Below, one piece after another: positions 19,226-60,528 of a stretch of 64,000 nucleotides of DNA; position 1 is the first letter of the stretch; the number at the start of each line of letters is the position of its first letter. This DNA is from a virus. The translations under genes and the position numbers were made by a program. The notes under the pieces are model-generated. The model saw only the letters and a list, made by a program, of their open reading frames with translations. It was not told where the DNA came from and ran no database searches. Where the stretch lies: IMG/VR virus record IMGVR_UViG_3300028042_000003, positions 42,166 through 106,165 of that record. One strand, 5' to 3'.

Positions 19226-19735
19226 ATGCATCAAATGTCTCAAAAGGAAATAAAAGACCTCAGAGAGTTATTGCTAAAAAGAAATAAAGGGAAGTGTCCA
19301 ATTTTGGACATTCCACTCCACCCAACAGACGCTGCTTTAGACCACGCCCACGAATCTTCAGAATGTAGTGAAACTGCAGAAGGTCAAATACGTGGAACGA
19401 TTCATAAGTTTGCTAACAGTTTAGAAGGCCAAATGCGTTCTAAATTTAGACGATCTGGTGTTGCTAAGTATATCAGTTTTGAAGATTTTCTTTTCAATCT
19501 TTATACTTATCTAATGGACTCAAGAGAATTATATCTTCATCCAAGTCATAAACCAAGACCAAGAAAGCTAATGAAGCAAAGCTATAACAAGCTAAAAAGA
19601 GAAATAACCAACTGGAACAGACTAGCGGCTAAGCCCATAAAGATGCCAGATTATCCTAAGTCAAAAAGACTTACTAAAAAACTAAAGGAACTTTATGAAA
19701 AATTCGCCATATACCCAGAATTTTATAGCAAATAA
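19226..19735 (+). CDS. Recombination endonuclease VII (T4 gp49-like)
   Basis: KCPIL...AALDHAH...GQIRGTIHKFANSLEG EndoVII motif. Confidence 0.8.
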   Translation: MHQMSQKEIKDLRELLLKRNKGKCPILDIPLHPTDAALDHAHESSECSETAEGQIRGTIHKFANSLEGQMRSKFRRSGVAKYISFEDFLFNLYTYLMDSRELYLHPSHKPRPRKLMKQSYNKLKREITNWNRLAAKPIKMPDYPKSKRLTKKLKELYEKFAIYPEFYSK

Positions 19736-19961
19736 CGAGTTAGAGATAGTAGAACTACTAAATGAGATATCCAAAATACCAGAAAAAAGTCTTTTGGATA
19801 AAATAGTAACTTACTGCGAAAAGTTTGACTTGGACCCACAAGATATAGGTGATGCGTTAGGTGACTCTGAACAATTCAAGATGATGTTGCATACAGAACT
19901 TGAACTAAATCATGTATTTCCAATGTCCAAAGAACCTACAATACAAATAGACGAGTGGTAG
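19695..19961 (+). CDS. Late-transcription coactivator (T4 gp33-like)
   Basis: LLDKIVTYCEKFDLDPQDIGDAL...LHTE pattern; located next to gp55. Confidence 0.65.
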   Translation: MKNSPYTQNFIANNELEIVELLNEISKIPEKSLLDKIVTYCEKFDLDPQDIGDALGDSEQFKMMLHTELELNHVFPMSKEPTIQIDEW

Positions 19962-19962
19962 G

Positions 19963-19996
19963 TTTAATGTTCGTGTAAGTTCTTTTATGTTATAAT
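19963..19996 (+). promoter_or_regulatory. Long-class early promoter, consensus TTTAATGTTCGTGTAAGGTATATTATGTTATAAT (34 bp); copies at 19963, 21920, 28869, 32651, 42413, 44387, 46808, 48422, 53254, 60476, 63403
   Basis: Eleven similar intergenic copies, each spanning exactly 34 bp to the end of TATAAT and followed by an AAGGA RBS. Confidence 0.85.
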
Positions 19997-20019
19997 AGTA
20001 CATAACAAAAGGAGAACAC

Positions 20020-22768
20020 ATGAACTTTACAAAAACAGAAGTCGAACAAATGAGAATCGAAATGACCGAAGCTATGAACAAAGTAGCTAAAAAATATGGA
20101 GCAGTAGCTTCTTTCGGAGGTATTCGATATGGTCTTGAAGTGACCAGTAAGGTAACAATTTCAAAAAAGACTGAAGATCAGTACGGCGAATTTACACTTA
20201 CAAAAGCAGCTAAAACACTCAAAGATAGATTACCAGTAATGGGTCTAAAAGCAGATGTTCTAAATGAACCGTTTACGTTCAAAGGCGATACAATAGTTAT
20301 CAAAGGATACAACACAAGAGCTAGAGCGTATCCAATTGAATATACTAAGAACGGACGGAATTATAAATGTTCTGTTAGTTACATGAAAGATATGGTTATA
20401 GAGAACAGACCAGAGTTGTTCCTATGAGACCTAAAATCGGAGATGTTTTTGCGATAGACAATAAAGACCCAATCACATACCATATATATTTTCAGGTAAC
20501 TAAATTACCAAGAGGTGCCGTGCATGGTAAGGTAATAAAAGTCCTAAAAATGAACCACAGCAAAGATGATGTAGGTAAAGAAGTAGTATTTCCGAAGTAC
20601 GCTGTGTTTGGTGAGTTATCTGAAAGGTGGTACAACACTATCAGATTACCTAAATCTAAATACCCGGAGTATTACTTATGAGACCTAAAATCGGAGATGT
20701 TTTTGAGGTAGAAGGTGATGCACCAACTGGTCCATTTCATATATATTTTCAGGTAACTAAATTACCAAGAGGACACGTCCATGGCAAGGCACTAAAAATA
20801 CTCAAAATGAACCACAATAACTATAAAGTAGGTGATATAGTGGCATGGCCGAAACGAGCTTTGTTTGGTGAACTAACACAAAGATGGTATGATGTAACTA
20901 GATTACCTAAATCTAAATACCCGGAGTATTACTTATGAGAATAAAACCTATGAAAATAACTAAAATTGGGTTATACAAAACTAGATCAGGAGATATAACA
21001 GAAATTGTCGATATTCGTGACGAACATCTTGGTATTTGGCCTATTATTGACAAAGGTGGTTTTTCATATACCAGATATGGTGGGGCTTCTTCAAATTATA
21101 ATTCACAAGATGATAAACCAGCAGAAGAACACCACCGAGATGTTGATTTGGTAGAATACATATCACAAGAAACCCATCCGGAGTATTACCTATGAAACTA
21201 AATCAAACAAAAATAAATAAATTTTATCTAATTACTAGTGAATTGACCCAATGGAACAATGCTGTTGTAAAAATCACCAAAGCTTCAGAACAAAATCGGA
21301 AGTCTGTTCAGTTGGACGTTATATCCACTTCACATGGACTAGTAGAACTAGGCCCAACTGTTATCAGTATAGATTCCGTCATTGGTGAGCATGGAATTTA
21401 CACAGAAATTACCCAAGAAAAAGACCCAGAAAGGTTCCTATGAGATACGAAGACCTAGATAAATTAGAGGTTGGTATGATGGTATCAGTTTCAGCTAAAG
21501 ATGGTTTATTCACTGAACATCCAATCGGCATCATAGCAAAACTACAACCCAATAAATCTTACCAAGTAGTGGTAGACTTCAAAATCAAAGGCGTACCTTT
21601 CAAAATAACAGAAATTGATAAGATTCTATCAAAAGAAGAATACCCGGAGTACCATCTATGAGCTGGAGAACACTAGGCACCAAAGTTGATATCAGTGATG
21701 CTAAAATAGACCATATTTACCGTATTTGGACTGACGGTGGACGGTTCCAAGAACTAATAAGAATTACCAAATTATCCACAGACATCAAAACTCAAGATAA
21801 AAACGTACTATGTGAAACACTAGCAGGAGAACCAGGTTATCACATGGAGTGGAATGTTTCTGCTACAGATGGTGAATTTTTCTATATTGGGAATAAAGAA
21901 ACCCATCCAGAGTATTATCTTTAATGTGTTTGTAAGGTATATTATGTTATAATAGTAAAAGGAATAAAAATGACCAAACAAGAACAAGAACAAGAACCAA
22001 AGTTCAAAGTAGGAGAGTTATGGAGACCATACCCAATAGAGCATTGGTCTTTACAAGCAGAAGGTCGAACAGAAGACTTCTGTAAGGGCAAAAAATTCAA
22101 ACAAGGCTTGACTTTAGAAATGGTGGGAACAATAAAAAACCAAGAACCCATCAAAATAACCACTGTCAGGAATGATCATATAGTAGCTAATGATGGTGGC
22201 TTTTCATGGGATATGCACTCACTAGGGGAGAAGCTAACAATAGAAGAATACCCGGAGTATTACCTATGACTCGTATAGTAAAAAACCTTCAGGAACTACG
22301 GAAGCTATTGGTACCAGAAGCTGTTGTTGAACACTACGAAAAGGGAACTTACCAGTTCCCTTCACTTTTCCAAATTGAAGATGGTAGGTTTCTTGGACAC
22401 CAACAACTATCAACAAAGGGTAAAATGCACTCATATGAACAACTCGCAGACTGGGGCTTTGATACCAGCGAGATAGACCAATTTTACAAAAAATATCCGG
22501 AGTATTTATTATGAATGAAACAGATGAAATAGAAAAGTTACATAAAAAAATGAATATAAACTCAATGTATGGAAGCTATGGAAGCTATAGGGATACGATA
22601 CCTACAAGCGCAGCAATAGCAATGGCTGTACATAGAGCTGGGCTTTACGCTGAGATTCAAACAATCAAAAAACATAACCCATTATCAAAAGAAGATAAAG
22701 AACGAATAGCAGAACTAAAGAACGAAGTAAAACACCACGAATTATATTATCCGGAGTATTACCTATGA
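20020..22768 (+). other. Array 1: ten small ORFs ending PExxL-stop (20020-20427, 20424-20681, 20678-20938, 20935-21195, 21192-21443, 21440-21661, 21658-21924, 21970-22269, 22266-22514, 22511-22768)
   Basis: C-termini RPELFL, YPEYYL, YPEYYL, HPEYYL, DPERFL, YPEYHL, HPEYYL, YPEYYL, YPEYLL, YPEYYL; mostly ATGA stop/start overlaps. Confidence 0.9.
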
Positions 22769-23301
22769 TGGTATTTTCACAGATGCATATGTCCATCGTA
22801 AATGTAGCATTCTCATTTAGTCACAATGAACTAACTCACATCAAAGATAACAGTATAGAGAGAGACCAATACCTTTTCAAATATAAGAGGTGGGAAACCA
22901 TGCCATCCATGGATTTCAAATTTTTACTTTTACAATTGACTTACAAATACCATGCTAATAAATTTGATTTATTCAAGCTTCTAAATGAAATAACACCAGA
23001 AGAACTACAAGAACTGAAACTAGAAAAACAAAAAATCATTTTATATACAAAAACACTTCAAGAAGATATGGATCTACTCAAAACAAAAGTAATAACTCCA
23101 GCTTTGGTGTCGAAATTATTCACTAATAAAGAAATTTCTATATTGGGGTTTTATTATTATATGTGGCATTTCAAAGTAGCAAAAAAACTATCAAGAATTC
23201 AAGAAAGGAAACTAAAACAAGTCCAGCTATTTTTCAAATTTCTACCCAAAATTGAAAACCATATAGCTACAATTTACGAACGAAACCAACGTCAGATATG
23301 A
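22765..23301 (+). CDS. Putative helicase loader (T4 gp59-like)
   Basis: Size and position near clamp-loader and helicase genes; weak resemblance only (KLFTNKEISILGFYY). Confidence 0.45.
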   Translation: MMVFSQMHMSIVNVAFSFSHNELTHIKDNSIERDQYLFKYKRWETMPSMDFKFLLLQLTYKYHANKFDLFKLLNEITPEELQELKLEKQKIILYTKTLQEDMDLLKTKVITPALVSKLFTNKEISILGFYYYMWHFKVAKKLSRIQERKLKQVQLFFKFLPKIENHIATIYERNQRQI

Positions 23302-24765: not shown

Positions 24766-26112
24766 ATGGAACAAGAACAACCAGAACAAGATATAAAACA
24801 TATCCTAGAAACGGAAGTAATAACTAATCTTCTAAAAGACAAAAAGTATTTCACTACAGTAATACACCAATTAGAACCTGATACATTCACGGATCCAGGT
24901 TGTAGAACAACTTTTGAACACATCAAAGAGTATTACCTAGAATATACCAGTGTACCAAATCTAAAAGAGCTTCTTTTGACGTTCAAAGACGCCACAAAGG
25001 AAATAAAGCAACAAGTCAAACCTATTATTGTTCAAGCCCAAGGTGGCTCTAATATCAATTCTGATTTGTTAGTGGACCTTACAGAAAAATTTATCAAAAT
25101 GAGTAAATTTGCTAAGGCTATTATCAAAGGGGCAGATGCTTTAGGTTCACACGATGAAGAACTAATGACAGAATCATACGCCCTAGCAGAAGAAGCCATC
25201 AAAGTATCACTAAGTGAAGACCTGGGAGTAGGGTTAGATGAAATTGAAAAAGTATTCCTGGAGTTCAAAGACAAACCTGGTATCAAGTTGGATATTCCAA
25301 GCTTTGACCAAATGATAGGATCTGGATTTACACCCAAAACACTCCACGCGGTAATGGCTGCATCAGGTGTAGGTAAATCAGCAGCAATGGTAGCATTTGC
25401 TGTACAATGGTTACTTCAAGGTAGAGATGTGGTTATAGCATCACTTGAAATGTCAGAAGCCGAAATGTATAAAAGAATATACGCAAATCTTTATGATATT
25501 GACATTGCCACATTGGGAACTATAGACCAACAAGTAATCAAAGTAAAATTTGAAGCCATCAAAGGTAAAATTGGTAGACTAGTGGTAAAAGAATTTCCAA
25601 CGGGTGGATTGACACCCCTAGGGTTGGATAGTTTCTTGGATAAACTCAAGACAGAGAAAGACATGGAAAAGCCGATAGTAATGGTGGATTATTTAGGTAT
25701 TATGGCCAGTGACAGAATGAAGAGTTTAGATAATAGTTATGCTTACTTTGGTTCAATCGCAGAAGAACTAAGAGCGATAGCACAAAAAAGAGATATTGTT
25801 ATGTTCACTGCGTTACAACTGAACAGAGGGGCTATCAACAACTTAGAAGCAGATCAAAGTGCTCTAGCGGAGAGTATGCGCATACTTATGATCCTGGATA
25901 GTGCATTTATTATTGCTCAAACACCTCAAATGAAAGAAGAGGGCAAAATGAAGATCAATTTCGTTAAAAACAGAATGGCCGGAAAGACTTGGAGCTTCGA
26001 TATCTCCTTCGATTACCGTAAATTTCGATTTGTGGACACTTTCAGTGTAAATGGTGATAATGTCACCGCAGGTGAGAATGACTTTGCTTCTCAACTAGCT
26101 GGTTTGATGTAA
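24766..26112 (+). CDS. gp41: Replicative DNA helicase (T4 gp41, DnaB family)
   Basis: AASGVGKS Walker A, ASLEMSE, VMVDYLGIM, TALQLNRG, KNRM. Confidence 0.92.
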   Translation: MEQEQPEQDIKHILETEVITNLLKDKKYFTTVIHQLEPDTFTDPGCRTTFEHIKEYYLEYTSVPNLKELLLTFKDATKEIKQQVKPIIVQAQGGSNINSDLLVDLTEKFIKMSKFAKAIIKGADALGSHDEELMTESYALAEEAIKVSLSEDLGVGLDEIEKVFLEFKDKPGIKLDIPSFDQMIGSGFTPKTLHAVMAASGVGKSAAMVAFAVQWLLQGRDVVIASLEMSEAEMYKRIYANLYDIDIATLGTIDQQVIKVKFEAIKGKIGRLVVKEFPTGGLTPLGLDSFLDKLKTEKDMEKPIVMVDYLGIMASDRMKSLDNSYAYFGSIAEELRAIAQKRDIVMFTALQLNRGAINNLEADQSALAESMRILMILDSAFIIAQTPQMKEEGKMKINFVKNRMAGKTWSFDISFDYRKFRFVDTFSVNGDNVTAGENDFASQLAGLM

Positions 26113-28259: not shown

Positions 28260-28873
28260 ATGTGACTCTATTACATCATACTCCACTTACCATTACAGAC
28301 CAAGCAATATCTAAGTGCTGGGACAAAGAATGTGACATAAACAACCCAAACGAAGAAAAAATCAATAGAGTTGTAAATAAATTCAAGCACCAATCAACAG
28401 TTGAGCACTTGTCTTACAACTTCGAGATCAAAGGGGTGAGTAGAGCGTTACTACAAGAATTAGCAAGACATAGAATTGCTTCTTACTCGGTGAAGTCTAC
28501 TAGATATACTCTCAAAGAACTCAAAAAAGAACTCACTTTCAATGACTTCAGTAATGACTTCCAGTATAAACGCTCTAGGGAATATGTGGTGTACACAGAA
28601 AACCAGGCCGTAGACGAAGCTATTTTCTATGCGTTAGCAGAACTCCAAGTACTTATCAAAGCTGGTATAAGTAATGACGTAGCTAAATACGCATTACCAG
28701 AGGCATATAAAACAGAACTTATTTGGACGGTCAACGCAAGATCACTGAAAAACTTTCTAAGCCTAAGAACAGATAAATCGGCTTTATGGGAAATAAGAAA
28801 TTTAGCGCATAAAGTGTATAGGACTATACCAGAAGATCATAAGTTTATTTTCACAAATGATGTAAAAATTTAA
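28256..28873 (+). CDS. thyX: FAD-dependent thymidylate synthase ThyX
   Basis: HQSTVEH, QELARHRIASYSVKSTRY, NARSLKNFLSLR. Confidence 0.95.
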   Translation: MNVTLLHHTPLTITDQAISKCWDKECDINNPNEEKINRVVNKFKHQSTVEHLSYNFEIKGVSRALLQELARHRIASYSVKSTRYTLKELKKELTFNDFSNDFQYKRSREYVVYTENQAVDEAIFYALAELQVLIKAGISNDVAKYALPEAYKTELIWTVNARSLKNFLSLRTDKSALWEIRNLAHKVYRTIPEDHKFIFTNDVKI

Positions 28874-28928
28874 TGTTCCTCTAAGGTATGTTATGTTATA
28901 ATAGTAAACAAAAATAAAAAGGCAACAA

Positions 28929-42378: not shown

Positions 42379-42990
42379 TGTATTCCTTATCTTTTTACTT
42401 ATTTATACTTCCTTTAATGTGTTTCAAAGGTATATTATGTTATAATAGTACATAAAAGGATAATAATGAAAGTTCAACTAAAACCAGAAATTTGTAGCGC
42501 ATGGGACGAATATGACTCAAGATGTGGTATGACCTCAGGTATTTGGTACGATATGAAAACTGTACCAAAAGATTTACCAGGTTTGGATGCTTTAGATAAC
42601 CCTGGAGTAGATGTTATTATCCAAAACCCAGAAACACCAGATGAAGCATGGTTTGAGTTATCAGATCTCATTGGTGAAGACGGCGAAATAAACCAAAAAA
42701 ATTATCCAGAATTATATATATAAAGGAACAAAATGAAAGTTCAACTAAAACCATTGATATGTGGAGATTGGCCACCTGGAGACACCAGGTATAATTTGAA
42801 ACCAGGTGTTCAGTATGATATGCACATAACAGAACCTGATTGGGATGGGGATAAGCACATTGCTGCGTTAGCAAATCCCAATAAAAATAGTTCAGAACAC
42901 GCCTATTTCAAACTAGAAGATCTTATAGGCCCAGGTGGATTGGAAGTATCTCAAAAAAATTATCCAGAATTATATCTATAAAGGAACAAG

Positions 42991-43440
42991 ATGATAAGAC
43001 CGACTCGTTTGAATTACAAATTTTTTAGATCATTACTATGGCACCAAAATAAACATCACAAGCATGGCGTTTTTGCGCATTCTTTGAAAGTAGTTTACTA
43101 CCTAATGACGGTAAATAGATATGATTTGGTACCTGCTGGTTTTTTACATGATATTGGTAAGCCATTTGTAGCTTACCAAAAAGACGAAGACAAAGCTTCA
43201 GGTGATTATAGCTTTACCAACCATGAGGAGATCAGTTACCGCCTGATAAAAAACTTCGCTAGTGACAAAACCTGCGAAATGGTAAGATATCACTACCACA
43301 TTAGAGCAATGCAAAAAGCAAAAGAACGTAATCAAATTGGCAAATACAACCGTTACAAAAGACAATACGATAAACTGTCAACAGAGACAAAAGCGGATCT
43401 TAGAGTATTCCTAGCAGCCGATGATTGTGGTAAATTATGA
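42991..43440 (+). CDS. HD-domain phosphohydrolase
   Basis: HHKHGVFAHSLKV...GFLHDIGKP...HEEISY...RYH...ADD. Confidence 0.8.
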   Translation: MIRPTRLNYKFFRSLLWHQNKHHKHGVFAHSLKVVYYLMTVNRYDLVPAGFLHDIGKPFVAYQKDEDKASGDYSFTNHEEISYRLIKNFASDKTCEMVRYHYHIRAMQKAKERNQIGKYNRYKRQYDKLSTETKADLRVFLAADDCGKL

Positions 43441-45032
43441 TTGCCAAACCAGAATTTGATATCAACAAAATCAATGCTGGTGATACCGTCAAATGGAAAG
43501 ACTTAGGTGGAACGATATGGAAATCTCAGGTTATTGAAGTCAATTTGAAGCTTGGTACTGTCACTGTTGATTATGTCAACAGTTCAATAATTCTGTTAGC
43601 TTATAGAATACTTGACTGGTACACTAAAGAATCTCATCCGGAGTATTACTTATGATAATAGGAAGAGAAAGAATAGAAATAAGAAAAGTAAGAATCAAAT
43701 CACTGAAGCAAATCATAATGGACTCCAAAGGATTGTTACATGACACCCAGGTTAGACAATCAACTATAGACCAGAGTTCATTAGTTTTTGTGCCAGAAAT
43801 GGAACATCTATGTGGAACTGTTATTGATACCAATAGCTTATTTACTATTGGTAGCATCAAAGCTTGGAAAATAGATGAGTGGATGATAGCAGAAGAAATC
43901 ACCCAAGAAGATTATCCGGAGTATTACCTATGATAAAAGCAGACCTAATACACAAACATTGGTATCACGTCAGGTTGGGTATAGGACCTGAGGTAGTACC
44001 ACTACAACACGCCAAAGCATACGGGCCACCTAATACTGCTTGGTTTATTGGACCTAAAAAAAGTGTTCATATAAGCAGAATAGTAAAACATCTCTCACCA
44101 GATGATTACCCAGAATATTATCTATAAAGGAAAATTATGTCAAGAAATCTTATACTAGAAAGAAATGTAGGAACTTATTACTCCGTCAATGATGAGCTTT
44201 ATATTTTAGAAACATTTTCAGATGACCCAAGCACAGTGGTAGGAAGTTTGAGCTATCCAGGTCGGTTATTCAAAATGCATACCGTTTACCCAATAGTGCT
44301 TAGGGTTAGCAAAAATGGAATTACTGCTAGTGGGGATACCGCGTTTGAAGAGAATAAAGAAACTCACCCAGAACATTACCTCTAGGTTTAATGTTCGTGT
44401 AAGGTATATTATGTTATAATAGTATAACAAGAAACAGAAGGAGAACATATGAAACAAGGAATAATAAATCAACAGAATTTAGTATTTATTGAGTCAGCTT
44501 GGTATAATACGGTAGGTTTTGTGTTAGCCCAAGATGCTATTACCAGAGAATACAAATGCTACACCCACAAATTAGGTGGTGACCGTAATGACGATTACAC
44601 AGAAGATCAAGATATCAATAAGATACTTGCACATGGGAGTTACTTTCCACTTGAAGCGGCGAAAGCAATTTTTGCTTATGACACCAATAAGGATTTCATT
44701 TACGAAAATCCAGAATTATATCTATAAAGGAAAATTATGAAACTAAGACTAAAATACAACAAAATACTAGACTCATACTACATTGAGGAAAACTATGGAT
44801 TCTTCTTTTGGTCGCATGTTCAAGGACCATCGTTTACAATCGAGCCAAGACCAAATAGCGATAAAAAGTTAGTGTTCCCAGATCTACCAAGACCGTCAAT
44901 GCCAACTTTTGATGGTGGGTGGTACTTCAAAAACTATGACATAGCTTTACAAGGAATGCGAGATATGCTAACAGAATGTGAAAAAGCCAACGCAAAAGCT
45001 AAAGCCCACAAAATTACCAAAATGGAGACAAA

Positions 45033-45527
45033 ATGCTAACAAATTTACTAAGAAATGTACCAGGCTCAATCACTTGGATGGTTGTAGTATCAATCTTGAT
45101 GTGGTTCTTTACTTTTCAACTGGGTATCGTTTTAGTTTTGGTCATAATGACCTTCCTTGTTTGGGGTGGAGCAATAGAAGGCCTTCACTTAAATGACGTA
45201 AATTATGGTCATTTTATGCTTCTCGTTTCACTGTCGGTAATTGGCGGTTGGTCTTATTACAAAATTGATACATTCGTAGAATATAACAAAATAGTATCTG
45301 TTCAAAAAGGAACAGATTATAATGTCACGTATGACATAAACTCAGATAACATTACCATAAGACTAGCTACTAAACATAAAATAGTAAAATCTATAACAGT
45401 AAGCAAAGACAACCTAGAAAGAATAAAAGACATCACAGATGGTAAGTTCACCCTAGAAAGAAGAAAGTACAGTACATGGTATTCCCAAAACCTCGGGTTC
45501 GAAACTACATTCAAAATGGATAAATAA
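45033..45527 (+). CDS. Membrane protein with three predicted TM segments
   Basis: Hydrophobic N-terminal ~80 aa. Confidence 0.6.
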   Translation: MLTNLLRNVPGSITWMVVVSILMWFFTFQLGIVLVLVIMTFLVWGGAIEGLHLNDVNYGHFMLLVSLSVIGGWSYYKIDTFVEYNKIVSVQKGTDYNVTYDINSDNITIRLATKHKIVKSITVSKDNLERIKDITDGKFTLERRKYSTWYSQNLGFETTFKMDK

Positions 45528-48482
45528 TGAACAATTACACCCAAGAAAAAACTAGACTTTTATTGGTAAATCAAATATCAATAAAAACATTAGCAGATCA
45601 CATCCAAAGTGGTGGATATCTAACAAGTCCATTTATGGAGCTTTTCAAAGATTATCTAAATGAGGTGTCTCCAGTGATGTTCCCTTTAGCTGTTCCACTT
45701 GGAATTATAGAAATCTTAGTGTTGAAATATCGTCTAAAAAATGTAAGACAAAAATACCCAGAAAGGTTCCTATGAAAATATTTGGCATAATAAAAAGAAC
45801 ACCTAAGTTCCTAAAAGACACCATCGGTGCATTCACAAAAGAGTGCATAAAGGACTTGTCAAAAGAAGAATACCTAGAGGTCAAAGAAGCTTTTGTAATA
45901 ACACAAGACCAATCACCTAGAGAACAAATAAGAGAAAGTTACAACTTCGGTTGGTTTGGTGAAAATTTAGCTACTGGAGTTATGCAGCTAATGATGTGGT
46001 TTTATGGGTACAAAGCTTGGAGATTTGAGAAAAAATACCCAGAGGAATTACTATGAAAATTGACATTCACTCTACTGACCACCAAAAGTTCAGAGAAATA
46101 GTTTTTGGTGGGTATACTATAAAAACTTACGAAGAAGCTAAGAATTTTGTCAAAGAACTCGAAGGAGACTCAGATGTACAAGAAAATGGATTGTATAATG
46201 CCCTAAGAAACCCAAAAGATAAAAAGATACTAACTTTTTTTCTTTTTATCTTTCTGAAACTAATGATTATCTTTTTAGTATATAAAATAAATAAATTCAG
46301 AAAAAAATACCCAGAGGAGTTATTATGAGAATAAATTTTATAGACCGTGAAAATCCAGAAATGAGTGATTTTTTCATTAGGACAGAAAACATCGCCCAGG
46401 ACATTCCAACAGAATCAAAAACTGGTCTTCTCGAAGTTTGGAAAAGTGAGAAGCTCCAGGAGTACAAAGAAAGAAACATCAAAATACGCGCTTTGGTTGC
46501 TCAAAATAAAGAAACCCTAAAAGAAATAAAAGAAGGGTTCAATGAATTCGTCAAGGAAGAATACCCGGAGATGTTCCTATGAACCTAAAAGCCCTAGAAA
46601 CTCAAATTGTTGATGTATTATCATCTACGCCAACCAATACAACAGGTAAAGCAATTGGTTCGATGTCGACTGAAGAGATAATCCAAGAGTTCAGAGTAGC
46701 TTGTGAGCAAAATCTTGATGTAACTAGGGAATTTATTCTAGTTTATGTGAATCTAAAAAACCCAGAAGCCCAAGAAATAATCCAAGTGGAGTACCCGGAG
46801 TATTTCCTATAACCTTCGTGTAAGGTTAGGTGTGTTATAATAAGTAAAAAAAAGGAGCACCAGTGAAAATAAAAGTAAATGACAGAATCAAAATAAAAGA
46901 TGGTGTTTACTATGTTGAAGATAAGGTTGGTATTGTCAATCATGTGTACAAAGACGAGATACGATGTGATTTTCTTTACACAAAAGGTGACACCCAAAAC
47001 CTAAGAGTAGATCGCAACGATATAGAAGAACATCTAAATAAAGAAACCCATCCAGAGTATTTCCTATGATAGAAGCTATTCAAGGAAACATTTACAGAGT
47101 CAAACTAAGAGAAAATGAACCAGAGGAAAGCTGGATGTTGTGTACAAAAACAGTCAAAACAAAGTATTATTTTGACATACTCAAAACAAATTGTGGTTGG
47201 GAAACTGTAAAGAAAATTTGGTACACAAGAAAAAACTTCAATGAAATTCATGATGTGATTGAAGTTTTCAATCCAACAGATTACCCAGAGTATTTTCTAT
47301 GAGACAAGTAAAAGTAGGAAACATCTATAAAAACCGCTGCGGTCAAGTAGTGAAAATAACCAAAACGAGTGATGAGTTAGCAGACGTGGATGTAATAAAA
47401 AGTAGTAAAAATTTAGACATGGAGCCATATAATTTTTGGATGGCTTCTGGTTCAAGGTGTGATTCAAGCTTATTAGAAATACCACTACACAAACAATCGG
47501 ATGATGATGTGCTAATAGACCAAGTACTAACAAAAGAAGATTATCCAGAATATTACTTATAAGGACTAAAATGGACGAATACAAAAAGAAAGAATTCAAA
47601 AGGTGGACCCAAGCTAAAGTCAACGATGTGGTTGTGTACAATTATGACCCAGAAGAAGACAACACAAACTACATCGGATTGATAAAAAATATCTCCCAAG
47701 AGGGTGTGTACATTGATGATCTTTATTGTATAGAAAATAAAGACGAAAATATAGAAGAACAAATTCTAATAAACGAAACAAATGTAGATATATTTATTTT
47801 GGTAAAGGTATTGTATAACCACAAACCTTTACTAGAAACCATCCAAGAAGATTACCCGGAGTTTTTCCTATGAGACCAGGCGAAGTGTACAGAAACAGAA
47901 GAGGAGACATCGTCCAAATTATGGCAGTAGATAACGATCTTGCGCATCTTGAAGTTATAAAATTCAAGAACCCCAATCAACCTGGACCAAAAAGGTATAA
48001 TTTTTGGTCAAAATCTGGGTCGAGATCATATGGAAGATATAATCACCCAAACGACATCATTGAGCGCCACCAAAAACAAGAGGATGTAATATTGATTATC
48101 TTATCAAAAGAAGATCATCCGGAGTATTACTTATGATAGATAACTTCAAAAAATGGCAAGACCTAAAAGTAGGGGACGTCGTTCTTTACCGATACGACCC
48201 AAAGGATTCAGATGTTTTGTTTATTGCTTGCATCACTGAAAAAACAGAAGAAAAGGTAGAGTTTTATGATATTCATTCGTTTTCTGAATATCTAGAGCCA
48301 GAACCAGAGGTGTTTGTAAACGCTGTGAATGAAGATCATTTTATTCTAGAAAGGGTACTCATGCAAGCACCTTCTATTTTATCGGTGGTAAAAACAAGAT
48401 TTCCGGAGTTATTCCTCTAGGTTTAATGTTCGTGTAAGGTATATTATGTTATAATAGTACATAACAAATAAAAAGGATACAA

Positions 48483-49901
48483 ATGAAAACACAAGAAACT
48501 AAAAATTTACCAATTGATAGAGGACCGTACGAGGAAACTTTTGTCAATATGATGAGTTCACCTAAATATGTACAACAACACTTTTATGCGTTCGTAATTG
48601 CTAAAATGCAAGTATCGATAAACAGAAGTGTTCCAACAGCAGGTGCTGGGTTTTATGATAATAACTATCAATTAGTTATAAATCCAGACTTTTTCAACCC
48701 ACTGCCACTTGAGCAAAGAATGGGTATTCTAATCCACGAAGTAGATCATATTATTTTACAACACCTTGGAAGAAAAGGTGAAAGAGATCATAAATTATTC
48801 AACGTGGCTTGTGATATTGCATTGAACCAAATGATACCAAAAGATTGGTTACCAGATGGTGCTTTATATCCAGAGACTTTCAAATTACCAGATGGTAATT
48901 TTTGGCCAAAAGATCTAACAGCTGAACAGTATTACCAATTAGCTAAAGACGAGAAAGATAAGCAAGAGAAAGAAAAAGACGACCAAGACACAGAAGAAAA
49001 ATGTGATAACTGTGGTGGTTCTGGAGAAGAGCCACAAGACGGTGACCAAGAAGGCGAAGAAGGCGAAGGTGAAGGCCAAGGCGAAGGTGAAGAAAAAGAA
49101 GGTAAAGAACCTTGTAAAGAATGTCAAGGTACAGGTGCTAAACCTGGAACTGGATTCCAACCATCAAATGGTAACCCTAACCTTACTGGACAAGAAGAAA
49201 TCACTATTGATTCACATGATATGTGGGATAAAATGTCAGACGAAGACCAAGAAATGGCTAAAGAGATGATGTCAAAAACATTAGAACAAGCTATGGAAAA
49301 GTCAAGAGGTAACGCTCCAAGTAACATTGAAATGATTATGGAATTATGGAGAAAGAAAGCTAAACTTAGTTGGAAACGTATTTTGAAAAAGTACCTTTCA
49401 AGTAAAAAGGGTCAACGTGTAGCAACAATCAAGAAGAGAAACAGACGTATTAGAACCCTTGGAGTCAAAGGTTCAAAAACAGCGTATGATACTCCAGAAG
49501 TAGTTGTTGGTCTTGATACCAGTGGTTCAATGAGCAACGAAGAAATTGCAGAAGCTTTAGTTGAGATCAACGAAGTATGTAAAATTTCAAACAGTAACTT
49601 GAAATTGGTTCAAATTGACACTACCATAAAAGGTCTAGAAGAGTATGACCCTAAAAAGAAAAACTTCAAAAGACGTGGTTGTGGTGGTACTTACATGGGC
49701 GCAATGGCTAAATTCTTGAAAGATGAAAAGATAAAGTATGATGTGCTAGTAATGATCTCAGATATGTACATTGAAGATGTATCAACAGATGAGAACTGGA
49801 AAGGTCTCAAAAAACCAACACTATGGTTGAACACAAGTGGCGCCGATGTTGAATGGGATGGTCTAAAAAACCACAAAATTTATAACATTAGTGATGCGTA
49901 A
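48483..49901 (+). CDS. VWA-domain protein with N-terminal metallopeptidase-like HExxH domain (MoxR partner)
   Basis: ILIHEVDHII...FNVACDIALNQ; VGLDTSGSMS MIDAS; GCGGT; SDMY. Confidence 0.85.
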   Translation: MKTQETKNLPIDRGPYEETFVNMMSSPKYVQQHFYAFVIAKMQVSINRSVPTAGAGFYDNNYQLVINPDFFNPLPLEQRMGILIHEVDHIILQHLGRKGERDHKLFNVACDIALNQMIPKDWLPDGALYPETFKLPDGNFWPKDLTAEQYYQLAKDEKDKQEKEKDDQDTEEKCDNCGGSGEEPQDGDQEGEEGEGEGQGEGEEKEGKEPCKECQGTGAKPGTGFQPSNGNPNLTGQEEITIDSHDMWDKMSDEDQEMAKEMMSKTLEQAMEKSRGNAPSNIEMIMELWRKKAKLSWKRILKKYLSSKKGQRVATIKKRNRRIRTLGVKGSKTAYDTPEVVVGLDTSGSMSNEEIAEALVEINEVCKISNSNLKLVQIDTTIKGLEEYDPKKKNFKRRGCGGTYMGAMAKFLKDEKIKYDVLVMISDMYIEDVSTDENWKGLKKPTLWLNTSGADVEWDGLKNHKIYNISDA

Positions 49902-52900
49902 TGAGAATCCAAGATAACCAGGTATACAAAACGATTGGTGGCAATATGGTAAAGGTCACCAAATCGGACAAACCAGGGGACTCTTTATGGCCGTTTAGTG
50001 GTACCATCAATGATGTATTCATTACCTGGAGCATTATGGGATGTGCAAGTGCTCAGATAAACTCTCCCAGCAGTACCCAAGAAGCTTATCCCCATAACCA
50101 TAATTTAGTAGAACACCTAAAACAAGAAGAATACCCGGAGTATTACTTATGATTGAAAATGCGCTAAATAGTCAGCTAAAACCTGGACTTTGGAAGATAG
50201 AGTGGGACGGAACTGTTGAACACTTCGAGCATATTGTTGAGTGTCGTTTGATATCAAACAGAAAAAGACTAAAAACACTGAAACAAGTAGCCGGTAAGCT
50301 AAATGAAGAATATTACAATAACTGGTCGTTATCAAGAAACATGGAGGCCCAAGCAACATATATTGGACCAATAGAAAATTACCCGGAGTATTACTTATGA
50401 GATTCACAAAAGATGATATTGGTACATTGGTAAAGGTCTATGATAATCTCCAGCATGAAACATACTATCCAATAATTGAAGGCTTTGATGATAGCGAGTT
50501 ACCAATGAACTTGTCAGTAAATGGTGAAGATTGGTTATCGTTCAACATAAATGGAAGATGGGGTGAATTTGAAATCACAAAAATCTACCCAAAAGAAAAA
50601 TATCCGGAGTATTACTTATGAGAAAAGAAAGACCAGAAAAATTTACAAAAGATGATATCAATTTAGTAGTTCAAGTAGAAGTTTACGACAACGACGAATT
50701 GAATCACTCTATAACGGCTGAGATAGTTGAGTTCAATATTGACAATGGTGAGAATCACCCATTACGGGTCAAAGATATCAATTCAGGTTCTGGGTTTATA
50801 CTAAAAGATGATGGTACATGGAAAAATGAATCAAGCAATTTATTCATTGAGATCACAAAAATATATCCAGAAGACAATTACCCGGAGTATTACTTATGAG
50901 ACAAAAACCAAAAAAAGGAGACTACATCAAAACACTAAATGGCATAGCTAAAGTTTATGAGGTTCATACCGCCAACGGAGCAAATCCCGTTTATGCGTAT
51001 GCAGTTAGATTCCTGGAGTTTCAAGACACCAGTGTAATACCTGCGTCTGCTATTCTTGAAGTTCTCAACTTAGATGATTACCCGGAGTTGGTGTTATGAG
51101 AATGTTCAAACCAGATGAAGTATATCTACTAAAGAATAACAAGATTGCTACCGTTGTAAATGTATTTTCTTATTCGGTAGACCTATTGATAGATGGAAAG
51201 ATTGTGATTTTTAGTAGTTACGGTGAAAATAAGATGGAAAATTACCGAAACCCAAACCTTGGGTTTGATTATGGTATTGTTGGCACAATCAACCTGGAAG
51301 AATTCCCGGAGTACCAATTATGATTGCTAATATTGGATGGATACTAGAATTCAAAAATGAGTTATGTGAAGTTATTGATATAGATTATTTCGAAACCGAT
51401 GAATATCTTATTAGAATAATCTCAGACAAAAGAGAATTTAGAGTAGGTGGATCTGAACTTAGACCACCTGACCCAATAAAATACCCGGAGACAAGTTTAT
51501 GACAGAAGAATTTATCGCTACATCAAATCACAGCAAAATACCAGCACCTATTTTGCTAAAGTTTTCTATTATTGGTATTGATGTTTATTCAAACCTGAAC
51601 ACCAAAGGAACAGTAGCTAATTTTTTTAGAAAAAAGGCTACATCAAAAGGTGAATACCCAGATGGTAATCATATTGGTTACATTCAATACGAAAACGTCA
51701 ATGACCTATACGAGATCTTTGCGGCAAGATACCCAGAGGAGACACTATGAATCCACCCATCCAAACTGACATCATAAGAGCAAATAGTCAGACCATAACA
51801 AGCATATCCCAACTTTATGTTGGTGTTTTGCTTTTAGAAAATAAAATGATCGCCGAGATAACAAAAATATCCAAAGATGGAATTGCTTTTGTGGTAGTCA
51901 ATGACGATTCAACAACCCCTTGGAGTCGAGGTCAAAACGGAACAATCAACACAGAACAATTCCAAGAAACTCTAAAGGCAGGTGACCATACGATGGTTAT
52001 AATAGGCAAAAAAGAAGATTACCCAGAGTTTTACCTATAAGGACAAAAATGAAAAAGAAAAAACTAAGATATGAAAGATACGCTAAGTTTATGGAACCAG
52101 AAGAATACAGAAGAATCAAACCTGGAGACATTATCCTTTATAGAGCTGATTTTATTCAATTATCCAAAGCTAAAGTTGCTTCGGTATGGGGTGGATGGGT
52201 TCTTATCAAAACAAACCATTGGCAAAAGCGTGTATATTTTAGCCAAATAGCAAAAGTTGTAACAAGACAATACCCAGAGGAATTACTATGAAACCAGAAC
52301 ACTACAGAGAGCATGACCTAAGACCTGATTCGGTTTCAATGAAAATTTTTAGGAACTTAGACTCATTAGATTGTATCGTAGCAGGTGGATACTGCTTATC
52401 TAAAGTTCAACGATTATACGGAAACCTTGCTTCTGAATATAATGATATTGATGTTTTTGTTCTAACGCAAGAAAGCTACAATGAAGTTCATAAAGTTCTT
52501 TCTAAGCTTGGTGTTTTAGATTATGATACCATATTAGCTGCTTCTTTTACTGTACAAGAGATAGGCCAAATGCGCCAAAGTGTTCAACTCATAAAACCAT
52601 TTAGGGATGTTTCTAGCTATGATGAGCTAATAGAAGACTTTGACTTGGATAATAGCAAATACTGGACTTATGCACCATGGAACAAAATTTACACAAAACA
52701 AGCAAACACTAGACTTCATGTTGTCACTCCAAATAAAAAAGTAAAATGGAATTATCACTTCTTAGAAAGAATGTTGAAATACCAAAACGAGAAGAAACTC
52801 CAACTGGATTTTGACCAGTATCCTCAGTTACTTGGTCTAATAAAGAGCACCAATAAAGAAAGATACAATATGGGTCCAACAGAATACAACCCAAAAGATC

Positions 52901-53229
52901 AAACAAAATACCACCTGGATAATGTATTATTAGAAATGATCAAAGAGGTTCTCAAAACAAGAAATCAAATCAGCAAGAAAATAGATAAAGAAACCCAAAT
53001 GGGAAAAGCTGGTTATATGCATCTCCAAAGAATTATGGAGCGATCACATGATATGCTAAGTTTATCTAGTGTTTCTATTTTCTTGTTTGATTACTGGGCC
53101 CAAGAGGAATGTCATACTGCTAAAGGGAATGATCTGGTTGTGGCACTTGGAGCAAAACTATCAAGCAAAAAATATTATCTAGCAAATCTAGGTAGGGTAA
53201 AAAGAACATACCCTGAATTATTATTATAA
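49901..53229 (+). other. Array 3: eleven consecutive ORFs ending PExxL-stop (49901, 50149, 50397, 50618, 50896, 51096, 51320, 51499, 51747, 52049, 52288)
   Basis: C-termini YPEYYL x4, YPELVL, FPEYQL, YPETSL, YPEETL, YPEFYL, YPEELL, YPELLL. Confidence 0.9.
52288..53229 (+). CDS. Nucleotidyltransferase-superfamily protein (CCA/poly(A)-polymerase head-like) carrying the PExxL tail
   Basis: IVAGGYCL...EYNDIDVFV (GG..DxD), VQLIK, IEDFDLDNSK. Confidence 0.65.
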   Translation: MKPEHYREHDLRPDSVSMKIFRNLDSLDCIVAGGYCLSKVQRLYGNLASEYNDIDVFVLTQESYNEVHKVLSKLGVLDYDTILAASFTVQEIGQMRQSVQLIKPFRDVSSYDELIEDFDLDNSKYWTYAPWNKIYTKQANTRLHVVTPNKKVKWNYHFLERMLKYQNEKKLQLDFDQYPQLLGLIKSTNKERYNMGPTEYNPKDQTKYHLDNVLLEMIKEVLKTRNQISKKIDKETQMGKAGYMHLQRIMERSHDMLSLSSVSIFLFDYWAQEECHTAKGNDLVVALGAKLSSKKYYLANLGRVKRTYPELLL

Positions 53230-53299
53230 AAAGAATTTCAATAAAAGGCTAGGTTTAATGTTCGTGTAAGGTACTTTATGTTATAATAGTACATAACAA

Positions 53300-53333
53300 G
53301 AAGAACTAGTAAGAGTTACTAGACAGACTTCAT
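53300..53333 (+). other. Conserved 5'-UTR stem-loop, copy 2
   Basis: GAAG-AA-CTAGTAA-GAG-TTACTAG-ACAGA-CTTC-AT upstream of the AAA ATPase RBS. Confidence 0.6.
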
Positions 53334-53350: not shown

Positions 53351-54466
53351 ATGAAAATTTCAAAAATCAAAGTAGCTATGGATATAGCACAAGCAGCAAA
53401 TGATAACGTACACATGATTGGACCACATGGTATTGGTAAAACTGAATACGTGAAAGCGTGGGCAAAAGAAAAAGGTTATCACCTTGAGGTATTACAACTT
53501 CCAATTCTTGAGACATCAGATCTTATTGGTATGCCTGATATTACTGAAACAGAATTTGGAAAAGTTACTGTGTTCGCAAAGCCTGAATGGTTAGTTCGTA
53601 TGGACCAAGCAAACAAAGCTGGTAAGCACTGTGTAGTATTTATGGATGAACTTGGTCGTTCGAGTATGGAAATTAGACAAGCGTCTCTTCAAATTGTACT
53701 TGAGAAAAAAGTTTCAGAACATGCACTTCCAGAGTTAGATGGTATCCAGACATTATGTGTCGTTGCCGATAACCCAAGTGATACTTATGATACAGCTGAC
53801 TTTGATGCAGCACTTGAAGATAGATTCCAAACTTACCCAGATATCACAGCAGATATCAAAGACTGGTTGAAGTATGCCAGAGAAGTTGGTGTTGAAGCAG
53901 TAGTAACTGACTTCTTAGCAGAATACCCAGAAAACTTACACTTTGTTGATGAGTCAGATGGTGAAAAGGGTTCAAGCCCAAGAGCGTGGAAGAAACTCTC
54001 AGACGGTATGCAAAAATGTACAGATAAAGGGTTCATGAGAACACTTATCGTATCAAAAGTTGGTAAAACAGTAGGTTCAAGTTTCAATCACTTTTTCAAC
54101 AACTACATTGATATTGTAAAACCTGAAGATGTACTTGAGAATATCGGTAAAGCGTCTATCGCAACTGAGAAAGACCAAGAGAAAGCGGCTAAAAAACTTT
54201 CTAAGTTGACTAAAGGTATCGAGGTTATCTCAGCACAAGAGTTAGCACAGAAAATTATCGCTAATATCAAAGAAAACAAAGAAGGTTTCACAAACGAGAC
54301 AATGATTGTTTACTTGGCTTCTATAAACCTTGAGACTGCAGCAGCAATCCTAAAAGGTTGGAAAGATGGGGACAAAGAAGAAACTGAGTTTTACTACGGT
54401 GGATTCATAAAAGGACAGCCTAACAAATGGTTGATTCGTAAAATTACTTCTAAAGTAACACAGTAA
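53351..54466 (+). CDS. MoxR-like AAA+ ATPase
   Basis: GPHGIGKT Walker A, ETSDLIGMP, VFMDELGRS Walker B, ADNP, FDAALEDRF, SPRAW. Confidence 0.88.
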   Translation: MKISKIKVAMDIAQAANDNVHMIGPHGIGKTEYVKAWAKEKGYHLEVLQLPILETSDLIGMPDITETEFGKVTVFAKPEWLVRMDQANKAGKHCVVFMDELGRSSMEIRQASLQIVLEKKVSEHALPELDGIQTLCVVADNPSDTYDTADFDAALEDRFQTYPDITADIKDWLKYAREVGVEAVVTDFLAEYPENLHFVDESDGEKGSSPRAWKKLSDGMQKCTDKGFMRTLIVSKVGKTVGSSFNHFFNNYIDIVKPEDVLENIGKASIATEKDQEKAAKKLSKLTKGIEVISAQELAQKIIANIKENKEGFTNETMIVYLASINLETAAAILKGWKDGDKEETEFYYGGFIKGQPNKWLIRKITSKVTQ

Positions 54467-56469
54467 TGAAGTGGGGTATAAACCCACCGAGGTTCGCAGG
54501 TAGTCAAGTTTACTACCGGGACTTGGTGGTTTTTGCTGTGCAAGAAAATTCAGTTATAGGAGCAGAAAAGTTTGACCTTGACGGTTTTTCAAAACCAATG
54601 TCGACTTTAGATATTGAATTCAACCCTCTTTTGACAACAGAATTCAAAGAGATTCAACACCCAGTTGAAAACATCACAGATAATATCGTTCGGACTACTT
54701 GGTTGTTCAACAGTAAAGAAGAAGCATTTATTCAAAAGGTAGTCTTATTGGCTCATATCAAAGAGTACTTTTACAAAAAACAAATAGAAGATAAGAAATA
54801 CTTCGATACCAAAATACCTAAAGATATCAACACAAAGCTAGAAAAATTACAAGAAAAATACCCAGAGGTTATGTTATGATACACGCAAAAGTCAATACAG
54901 CACTTAGGTTATCAGAAATTTTAGGGTTGAATGTACGATATAATTCAGCTGAAAACCTTTATTTTATACAAAAACTAGATGAGTGTATAATTGTTCCAGC
55001 TGATAAACCTCAAGTGGGTGTTCTTAGATACCTAAAAGAACACCACCCAGAGGTAACACTATGATTCCAGAATCATTGAGCCCAAGAGACTATCAAATTG
55101 GTAAATGTTATCTAGCTAAATGGAAAGATAACAGAAAAGATCTTTGGATTTTTGCACCCATTGAAAAACATGACGTTTATATTACTTGCAAAGACATAAT
55201 AATTCTAAAGGGTGATACACCAATGGATGAATATGATATTTATTATGATACCAATAACGCATTTGAAATTGTAAAAGAAGTATCAAAAGAAACCCATCCG
55301 GAGTATTTCCTATGAAATTTGTCCTAATACAGCCAAAGGAATGGTTCGAGAAAAATGCATACGAAGACGAAGACGGAGATTATTGGGGATCAGAAAAACA
55401 GTATAAAGCATATAAAAAAGAACTAAATAAAGACTCCCATGATTCAGAAAAGTTACATAAATTATCTACCTACTTTTGCTTAGACAATACCCTTTTGGAC
55501 GACTGGTATGGTATTGTTGATATTACCAATGAGCAAAAGCAGTATTACGAATGGGCAGTAAAGAAAAAGCTCCCAAAATCTAAATACCCGGAGTATTACC
55601 TATGAAAAAACACGATATTATCAAACTATCAAGCCCAACTTTTGAGGGTGTTGGTATCGTCATTAGAGCCTCTGGCACTGCAATTAGTTGTCGAACATTA
55701 CACCAAATAACCGAACGAAGACCTACCGATAGATTTGTCTTCTCAACGGATGACGTAAATATCAAGTTTGAAATCCTACCTAAAAAAGATTACCCGGAGT
55801 ACCACCTATGAAAAAACACGAAGCACCAGAAAACCAACAGCATCTTTTCGATACTGAACTTTTCGCATACAGACGGAAGTCACCTACTTATGCTAAATTC
55901 ACCATAGAAGATATACGCGGCTTACCTGAAAATGGTTATGGTTCTGTTGTTACTCTTGTTGTATCAAAAAACGGTAACCGAAAGAAAACGCTTTATACTG
56001 TTCAGTTTGCTTGTGAGCTTACTGATTGGGGTTATAAGTTATTCAGTACCAAAAATAAGTGGAGCACCAGTTTAGGTGAACACTTCCAAAAAATGGAAGC
56101 TTCAAAAGAATACACCAATGATGCAAGAACCACCTCATCGTATAAAAAAGAACTACAAGAAAACAAAGACAGATTCCCGGAGTACTGGTTATGAGCATGA
56201 TAGACGTGACAGACATGAAATCACTACAAGATGGCTTACCGACGATAAAGGAAGGTGATGTGTTATCCATAATGTGGAATGATGGAAACCAAGAAATAAT
56301 CGCAGAAGTGATGGTATCATCCACAACTGGAATAAGAACAAAAGACCTAAGAGTTCTACAAGGTAAAAAAAGCTACAGTAAAATTGGAGCTAGAGGTTTC
56401 TATGAGAATCTTGATACACACTATTATAGATCAATCGATATAAAAAAATACCCGGAGTACATATTATGA
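54466..56469 (+). other. Array 4: seven consecutive ORFs ending PExxL-stop (54466, 54876, 55061, 55312, 55602, 55808, 56191)
   Basis: C-termini YPEVML, HPEVTL, HPEYFL, YPEYYL, YPEYHL, FPEYWL, YPEYIL. Confidence 0.9.
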
Positions 56470-57055: not shown

Positions 57056-57289
57056 ATGGCACTGCACAAAACAAACCAACCCAAAACCACTGAAATCGTT
57101 GTAACTTTTATTAGTAATGACGAAATGAAGAGATATGGGTGGGATGAGTACAGACATGATTTCCCTGAAATTGTCAATAGGAGACATTTCATTTATAGAA
57201 AGAATGGCACATTCCTTCCGGCGTACATGGTAAAGAAAGAATACACTCTAGAAGAAGGTCAGGAGAAGTTCCCTGAACTATTTCTGTAG
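57056..57289 (+). CDS. Small PExxL-tailed protein (singleton)
   Basis: Ends EKFPELFL-stop, followed by a promoter. Confidence 0.75.
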   Translation: MALHKTNQPKTTEIVVTFISNDEMKRYGWDEYRHDFPEIVNRRHFIYRKNGTFLPAYMVKKEYTLEEGQEKFPELFL

Positions 57290-57339
57290 TCAAGAAACAT
57301 TTAAGAATAAAATAGTATAATAATACATAAAGGAACAAA

Positions 57340-58113
57340 ATGGTAAACATAATGGAAATATTTGGCTCGATTCAGGGCGAAGGTGAGAGAACCGGATACC
57401 CTAGTATCTTTGTAAGAAGTGGATTGTGTAACTTCACGTGCGAAGGCTTCGGTGTAGAATATAAAGACCCCAAAACGGGCGAAAGGAAATTTGGGTGTGA
57501 TTCGTATTACTCAGTCAACCCTGGTTTCAAAAAAGATTGGTCTTCTTATGTAGATTATAAAGATTTAGTGAAAGATATACTCAAAGAGGTCCCAGATTAT
57601 GGTGATTTTAGTATGACAAAAGCTGATATCGTCTTTACCGGTGGTGAGCCAATGATACACTGGAATGATGAGGTATATCAAAGAACCTTAGCTTATTTCA
57701 TCAGTAGAGGACACCATGTCACTATTGAAACAAACGCAGCAATGGATATTGAATTTACAAGAGAGTACCAAAAGAAGATTCAGTTTTCGCAATCAGTGAA
57801 GCTCAGTAATTCAGGGGAAGCTAAACACAAAAGAATCAATATTGAAACACTCACAAAAATAGCAGAAAATGCTCCTTCTTCTTATTTGAAATTTGTTATA
57901 GCTAAAGATACATGGGACGTAGATTTCAAAGAAATCAAAGAAATTCTAGAAGATATTCCGGCTTATGTTCAAATTTGGCTTATGCCTTTAGGCGATACAA
58001 GAGAAACAATGGCATATAATCAAATGTTCACATTACAGAAATGTACAGAGTTAGGTTTCAACTATGCTCATAGAGTTCACATTACTTTATTTGATAACGA
58101 GGCTGGCGTATGA
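57340..58113 (+). CDS. queE: 7-carboxy-7-deazaguanine synthase QueE (radical SAM)
   Basis: EIFGSIQGEGERTGYPSIFVRSGLCNFTC..GCDS, VFTGGEP, TIETN, HRVHITLF. Confidence 0.9.
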   Translation: MVNIMEIFGSIQGEGERTGYPSIFVRSGLCNFTCEGFGVEYKDPKTGERKFGCDSYYSVNPGFKKDWSSYVDYKDLVKDILKEVPDYGDFSMTKADIVFTGGEPMIHWNDEVYQRTLAYFISRGHHVTIETNAAMDIEFTREYQKKIQFSQSVKLSNSGEAKHKRINIETLTKIAENAPSSYLKFVIAKDTWDVDFKEIKEILEDIPAYVQIWLMPLGDTRETMAYNQMFTLQKCTELGFNYAHRVHITLFDNEAGV

Positions 58114-60480: not shown

Positions 60481-60528
60481 TCTTCGTGTAAGGTATATTA
60501 TGTTATAATAATACATAAAAGGAACATA

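Follow-up and report, generated by a model that had tools for sequence, protein, structure and literature searches.

What does a sequence of about 21 nt do that recurs, almost unchanged, at one boundary after another between the small genes of a T4-like phage, and does it let these genes come, go and multiply as cassettes? The question is raised by a 64,000-nt stretch of DNA, hereafter the window, which comprises bases 42166-106165 of a linear IMG/VR virus record (IMGVR_UViG_3300028042_000003; 125,228 bp, about 70% complete) and for which an initial annotation had proposed the recurrent junction as a hotspot of cassette shuffling. Our analysis favors, with a probability of roughly 0.6, the reading in which selection maintains the junction as a composite gene-boundary module, and in which the arrays built on it evolve by whole cassettes, in register, through general recombination aided by homology.

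The 21-mer TACCCGGAGTATTACYTATGA has 21 matches at no more than three mismatches, seven of them exact and all on the + strand, whereas dinucleotide shuffles give none; every site named in the initial annotation (20661, 20918, 22249, 50132, 50879 and 55585) was found again. The junction is composite in what it encodes. Read in frame, it gives Y-P-E-Y-Y-L followed by a stop, the ATG of the following gene overlaps the TGA, and the GGAG contained in CCG-GAG sits 8 nt before that ATG. These approximately 21 nt do three jobs at once: they specify a C-terminal peptide of the form [YHF]-P-E-[YFL]-[YFL]-L, supply a GGAG Shine-Dalgarno (SD) sequence through CCG-GAG, and join consecutive genes by the (C/T)TATGA overlap. 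The pattern is wider than had been stated, as 59 open reading frames (ORFs) of the 125-kb record, all on the + strand, terminate in PExxL and a stop. They lie mostly in four arrays of the window, at 20.0-22.8, 42.7-48.4, 49.9-53.2 and 54.5-57.3 kb:

20020-22768, + strand: array 1, 11 small genes predicted to be translationally coupled, with one promoter-like break at 21925-21969
42733-48420, + strand: array 2, whose genes bear the tail, with an A B A' B' block at 47299-48420
49901-53229, + strand: array 3, ten small cassettes and a gene of 313 aa
54466-57289, + strand: array 4, downstream of a MoxR-like gene, with content variable among ten related contigs

The stop and the start overlap, as ATGA, in 39 of the 59 tails, and GGAG occupies its fixed place 8 nt before the ATG in 25 of these 39, compared with two of the 20 non-overlapping tails. 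A stop/start overlap, when combined with an SD that lies at functional spacing within the preceding ORF, is the signature of translational coupling, and its presence here suggests that the genes are coupled; the overlaps would link small ORFan genes into long operons. Overlaps of the ATGA or TAATG type with an SD inside the upstream ORF are common in phage and bacterial operons, and the junction shares with them the stop/start overlap, an SD embedded in the final codons of the preceding gene and a codon choice bent toward the SD. It differs from them in that the spacer and flanking codons are fixed, the peptide is kept even without coupling, and each genome repeats the entire unit about 40 times. 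Among pairs of junctions, exact shared tracts reach at least 20 nt in 35 pairs and at least 24 nt in 12.

Codon choice in the tails departs from that of the genome: CCG makes up 5% of proline codons genome-wide and 47% in the tails, and GAG makes up 22% and 73% of glutamate codons, respectively. The bias follows the type of junction. GAG is used in 36 of 39 overlap versus 7 of 20 non-overlap junctions (Fisher p = 7e-6), and CCG in 25 of 39 versus 3 of 20 (Fisher p = 4e-4). Genes of the non-overlap class end in TAA or TAG, followed by a separate ribosome-binding site (RBS) of the AGGA type, and their peptide is kept as CCA-GAA-TAT-TAT-CTA; in three PERFL variants, GAA-AGG forms an alternative SD-like purine run. 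Since the bias tracks junction type and the peptide is kept in the non-overlap class, the peptide appears to be selected in its own right, with silent sites recruited as an SD only where genes overlap. A literature search on the tail peptide yielded nothing relevant. Two further regularities were noted at these sites. AGA (Arg) follows the overlapping ATG in 14 of 39 overlap junctions, so that the conserved sequence often extends to TATGAGA, and C is the last base of the codon at -2 in 22 of 24 overlap versus 7 of 16 non-overlap junctions.

The phage belongs to a deep-branching, uncultured T4-like lineage. Its genome (GC content 35.5%) contains T4-type genes for a gp44 clamp loader, a DnaB-like helicase, a family-B DNA polymerase, gp23-like capsid proteins and gp32; the polymerase is at most 43% identical to those of cultured phages, and its best matches are Vibrio and Campylobacter T4-like phages. 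No near match was found in the collection of cultured phages, where gp44 gave only weak cyanophage matches. An IMG/VR scan anchored on gp44 recovered no relative, a gp23-like search of other IMG/VR records, which are fragments, returned nothing, and no record of the exact VWA-like protein was found; RegA and RegB had no match, their controls likewise matching nowhere. Related contigs (designated by L numbers) were recovered from metagenomes in ENA and JGI, including one titled hydrothermal-vent metagenome, and from a Campylobacterales metagenome-assembled genome (MAG). This 2.4-Mb MAG (JAOZKZ01) includes several contigs of a phage relative (L067, which is contig C280, and also L028 and L033) with a gp44 56% identical to that of the window and with arrays of PEYFL-tailed genes; their presence in the MAG is a weak hint at the host. 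It was also the only real relative among the 40 matches of a junction 18-mer in GTDB genomes, most of them single and together about as many as our own estimate for chance. The closest relative is a near-identical strain in ENA sample ERZ27262682 (contigs L003/4/5, L021 and L009), whose sequence spans some 54 kb of the window and, except in a small number of diverged patches, is 99.8-99.97% identical to it.

The junction is conserved across the lineage. A distant contig, UViG_3300028042_000053, has no alignable gene bodies; about 24 of its ORFs carry the tail with the same codon pattern, and the 18-nt degenerate form of the junction, CCNGARTWYTWYYTATGA, has nine matches there. The same nucleotides and tails occur, again where gene bodies fail to align, in L001/L002, L018, L019 and the Campylobacterales contigs L028/L033. 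Because the junction is kept despite unalignable gene bodies, its identity is due mainly to selection, which acts on the tail peptide, on the SD and on the overlapping start, and the module is a feature of the lineage rather than the product of a recent spread. L018 (IMGVR_UViG_3300033146_003000) and L019 (IMGVR_UViG_3300026521_000471), with a GC content of 26-28%, have the same tail and overlap junction, which indicates that the tail system is wider than this lineage. Their tails include variants ending in Ile or Val (YPELFI with ATATGA), and their tail genes lie on both strands.

A tandem duplication is found in array 1, and the tail of its genes recurs in array 4:

20424-20681, + strand: paralog A, an 85-aa ORFan (MRPKIGDVF...LPKSKYPEYYL) without a Pfam family
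20678-20938, + strand: paralog B, 86 aa, in tandem with A
20661-20681, + strand: junction between A and B, with the codons Y-P-E-Y-Y-L, GGAG 8 nt before ATG, and the ATGA overlap
20918-20938, + strand: junction between B and the next gene, an exact consensus
55312-55605, + strand: gene with the LPKSKYPEYYL ending, its tail common to A and B and its body unrelated

The initial annotation had seen in A and B a recent tandem duplication with identical ends. The tandem arrangement and the identical ends hold, since the first 28 nt, an internal block of 35 nt and a 3' tract of 41 nt reaching 2 nt past the stop are the same in both genes; overall identity is only about 78% for nucleotides and 62% for amino acids, and the duplication is therefore old. 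It had also placed the PKSKYPEYYL ending on the distant gene 55312-55605, and rightly so: the body of that gene has no BLAST similarity to A or B, and its tail has 24 exact nt plus TATGA in common with theirs, synonymous differences appearing further upstream. Homologs of A form three clusters only among 5.8 billion proteins, and no array-1 cassette matched Pfam.

When the tails were trimmed, comparison within the genome yielded six paralog pairs only, all of them tandem or adjacent (rank distance 1-2), which points to in-register duplication on a local scale and not to dispersal; no paralog was detectable for 45 of 57 tail genes. A two-gene duplication, A B A' B', occupies 47299-48420, and adjacent pairs are also present in the relatives L001, L002 and L033. 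Such paralogs, adjacent, in register and with units ending at the repeat, look like the outcome of tandem duplication by unequal exchange.

Cassette-level polymorphism at junctions is observed among relatives, and at the finest scale between the window and the near-identical strain:

21175-21195, + strand: polymorphic junction with an extra gene in L003, followed by single-nucleotide polymorphisms (SNPs) at 21196 and 21203

Over 24 kb around array 1, where L003 and the window are 99.9% identical, the sole gene-sized difference is an extra gene of 72 aa (MIPKIGDV...DYPEYYL) in L003. It sits exactly at junction 21176-21195, as a unit of 215 nt with an exact direct repeat of 20 nt, ATCCGGAGTATTACCTATGA, on either side; for this unit, the check proposed in the initial annotation, whether indel breakpoints map to the junction, gave a positive answer. 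Arrays 2-4 are colinear in the near-identical strain and contain no further junction events. The profile of the A/B family matched the extra gene marginally (E=0.04, mostly over the N-terminus) and did not reach another group of cassettes, H (MIKPSIGD...); the comparison thus gives no evidence of dispersed paralogy across arrays within this genome. Two patches of divergence from the near-identical strain lie elsewhere in the window. In the helicase gene, seven SNPs fall within 16 nt (25614-25629) between otherwise 99.9%-identical strains, a micro-patch similar to the SNPs at array 1 and due either to short-tract conversion or to strain mixing in the assembly. The MoxR-like gene (53452-53700) has a 5.6%-diverged 5' patch relative to L009 that coincides with contig ends in ERZ27262682 and suggests strain-level mosaicism at the locus.

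In other relatives array content differs as well, and all gene-sized differences fall at gene boundaries. One such case is a single cassette of array 4:

54876-55064, + strand: cassette of 62 aa, found in some close relatives and missing from others

A contig of public run X1 joins 54880 to 55067 and skips this cassette; this was the only public run with part of the region, in the form of assembled contigs, and its coverage gaps and most of its joints carry no information, since joints such as 47798->48132 and 50952->51598 are interrupted by unknown letters or have short flanks. An identical anchor protein of 140 aa is encoded in L012 and in a Logan contig, which differ in whether a 62-aa gene comes next, and in L006 the cassette is replaced by two others, nucleotide similarity ending at 54881. 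The ORFans that differ between close relatives are bounded by the junction, the 72-aa gene by its 20-nt repeats, and the 62-aa cassette is polymorphic at junctions.

Intermediate relatives, whose anchor genes are 44-97% identical in amino acids to those of the window, show larger changes. Downstream of the gene MoxR-B, the cassettes of array 4 are C D F G E and onward in the window, H. D. in L006 and C H.. E in L024; L025/L026 have E (partial ORFs), and L023 and L013 have new genes. Across ten contigs these subsets keep one relative order, C<H<D<F<G<E, with the differences at internal positions. Array 3 has five cassettes in L012 versus ten in the window. In L007 the homologs of 51747 and 52049 are swapped, which could result from duplication followed by loss, and the A B A' B' block looks like an intermediate of such a process. 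In L067 array 1 is entirely absent between homologs of 19695-19961 and 22765-23301, and the Campylobacterales relative has two tandem homologs of cassette 21970-22269 in a different context. Of the shuffling originally proposed, gain, loss and duplication of cassettes at the junction thus stand; the relative order is mostly conserved, and the part assigned to micro-homology is plausible.

The favored explanation runs as follows. The module, in direct orientation at some 40-50 boundaries, would allow whole cassettes to be deleted, duplicated in tandem or replaced without loss of register. The homology it offers is short, 18-27 nt and at most 41, and very probably makes these events more frequent by unequal exchange or slippage. 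The exchanges would be made by the general replication-recombination machinery of the phage, and selection would keep only the in-register products. That micro-homology is the actual substrate of crossover is plausible and, in our view, somewhat more probable than its opposite.

The closest described mechanism is the modular shuffling of T4-type phages mediated by PromoterEarly Stem-Loops (PeSLs). These are intergenic repeats of about 100 conserved bp that combine a sigma70 promoter with a terminator stem-loop and bound ORFans differing between relatives (PMC2839356; PMC4122927); shuffling at them proceeds by general homologous recombination without an integrase, and mini-circles were shown for them (PMC2839356; Comeau et al. 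2014, PMC4122927). The junction likewise is a short, directly oriented expression signal between ORFans of hyperplastic regions, a gene that moves keeps its signals, and what distinguishes close relatives is single ORFans with the repeat at their borders. Unlike a PeSL, it is about 20 nt long, lies inside coding sequence, acts in translation (an SD and a stop/start overlap) and encodes a conserved protein tail, without a sigma70-like promoter or stem-loop. Promoter-like sites coincide with none of the junctions in array 1. Five junctions folded as single-stranded DNA gave a weak 5-bp stem only (-0.1 to -4.3 kcal/mol), four of the five being indistinguishable from shuffles, with no terminator, stable stem-loop or attC-like hairpin.

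A nearer relative of the PeSLs is probably a promoter-like repeat, about 45 nt long (TTTAATGTTCGTGTAAGG...TGTTATAAT) and equipped with an extended -10, which heads arrays and operons and would be a longer substrate for recombination:

19960-20022, + strand: promoter-like repeat heading array 1, with a core of about 45 nt that contains TGTTATAAT
21925-21969, 42406-42456, 44385-44440, 48422-48470, 53254-53303, 28869-28917 and 60473-60524: further copies of the repeat

Two perfect 63-nt copies lie 54 kb apart (19960-20022 of the window and 116375-116437 of the genome), and the motif is also present in the distant IMG/VR contig.

The arrays had further been likened to those of integrons (IntI, attI, attC, Pc), and there is a real resemblance: arrays of one orientation, small and mostly promoterless genes behind a common promoter, and whole cassettes present or absent. 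In integrons, new cassettes enter at attI, in first position, so that their order reflects acquisition, and attC sites are imperfect palindromes that fold as single-strand hairpins at cassette ends. Here, in contrast, no attC hairpins occur, relative order is conserved without a bias toward insertion in first position or entry at one end, and duplicates are tandem instead of dispersed. The statement that no integrase is visible extends from the window to the 125-kb record (about 70% complete), in which neither a tyrosine nor a serine recombinase was found: Phage_integrase (PF00589) and Resolvase (PF00239) had no match there, while the controls matched. GIY-YIG gave a sub-threshold match only, far from the arrays, and no back-joining record that would indicate excised circles was reported among the assembled contigs of run X1. 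A site-specific cassette system of the integron type is accordingly largely refuted and hardly credible for this phage, and with it the analogy.

A more serious competitor is that the junction has no part in recombination. Illegitimate exchange, or exchange through flanking homology between co-infecting relatives, would then create all kinds of indels, and only those in register would survive because others break translational coupling. We regard this as possible, at distinctly lower odds than the favored reading, and several observations that weigh against the latter speak for it. Two SNPs directly adjoin the L003 indel against a background of about one SNP per 2 kb, so that exchange with a third relative fits better than a plain deletion from repeat to repeat. 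The other gene-sized indel of the near-identical strain, an extra hydrophobic ORF of 42 aa at about 57.33 kb, is a 127-nt unit between ordinary SD-ATG microhomologies, that is, at a conventional RBS, in a 9%-diverged patch (57289-57340; L009 3884-4045). The junctions on either side of the polymorphic 62-aa cassette match poorly, with only about 6-9 nt in common, and a mosaic boundary in L011 has its start 16 nt or more upstream of the junction. Resolution to the nucleotide was reached for a single event, tracts of 20-27 nt are short for efficient homologous recombination of the T4 type, and RecA, Rad51/UvsX and UvsY were not matched in the (about 70% complete) record. The ordinary-RBS indel, the L011 boundary and the shortness of the homology mean that selection for in-register products could explain much, and the conservation of the junction can be explained by selection in full. 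What tips the balance toward a contribution of homology is that the sole indel resolved to the nucleotide is flanked by a perfect 20-nt direct repeat, that all detectable duplications are precise tandem units, and that the 35 pairs of junctions with at least 20 nt of exact homology offer what T4-type phages exploit at PeSLs (PMC2839356). As an observation beside the 42-aa ORF, a run X1 contig shows an insertion at 57288-57290 made up of some five copies of the octamer ACGCAGTG.

Two other readings would make less of the junction itself. Recent spread by duplication or gene conversion could have homogenized the boundaries without selection on each copy, as might be read from the ends of A and B, where the codons at conserved residues are identical in 20 of 20 cases compared with 24 of 34 in the middle, and from tail subclasses such as GAA-ACC-CAT-CC(G/A)-GAG that recur at the nucleotide level; yet the same 18-21-mers are found in lineages with unalignable gene bodies and a GC content of 26-36%, synonymous choices follow junction type, and tail genes mostly lack a detectable paralog, which makes concerted evolution an improbable source of the pattern. 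That the one-gene indel is a mis-assembly across repeats is very unlikely: both sequences are metagenome assemblies and the ERZ27262682 contigs do break inside arrays, but the shared repeat, at 20 nt, is shorter than the minimum k commonly used (21), which makes assembly collapse unlikely, the extra unit is an intact ORF that has a tail and a start overlap of its own, and independent cassette polymorphism is seen in other samples. A bolder extension is that the junction has evolved as a plug-and-play boundary, such that a cassette could leave, possibly in the form of a mini-circle carrying one junction, and re-enter at any other junction of any co-infecting relative. This we consider doubtful. 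Movement between arrays is hinted at by the homolog pair of 21970-22269 in another context and by LPKSKYPEYYL on an unrelated body. If it were true, an inserted gene would gain translation, operon membership and a C-terminal tag at once, and the junction would be a recombinase-free, translation-level counterpart of integrons and PeSLs, kept partly for evolvability.

Most unknown genes of T4-like phages reside in hyperplastic regions, and, to our knowledge, PeSLs are the only device described for their modular turnover. What is reiterated in this lineage is not a promoter-terminator; the unit is a boundary that acts in coding and translation, and a single 20-nt element ties together protein tagging, translational coupling and cassette-level plasticity of the genome. 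If homology drives the exchanges, a functional constraint can become a recombination scaffold, and a simple rule would be at hand for recognizing cassette boundaries in the genomes of uncultured phages. Otherwise, the arrays still illustrate, cleanly and in nature, how selection permits genes to be gained and lost only in register.

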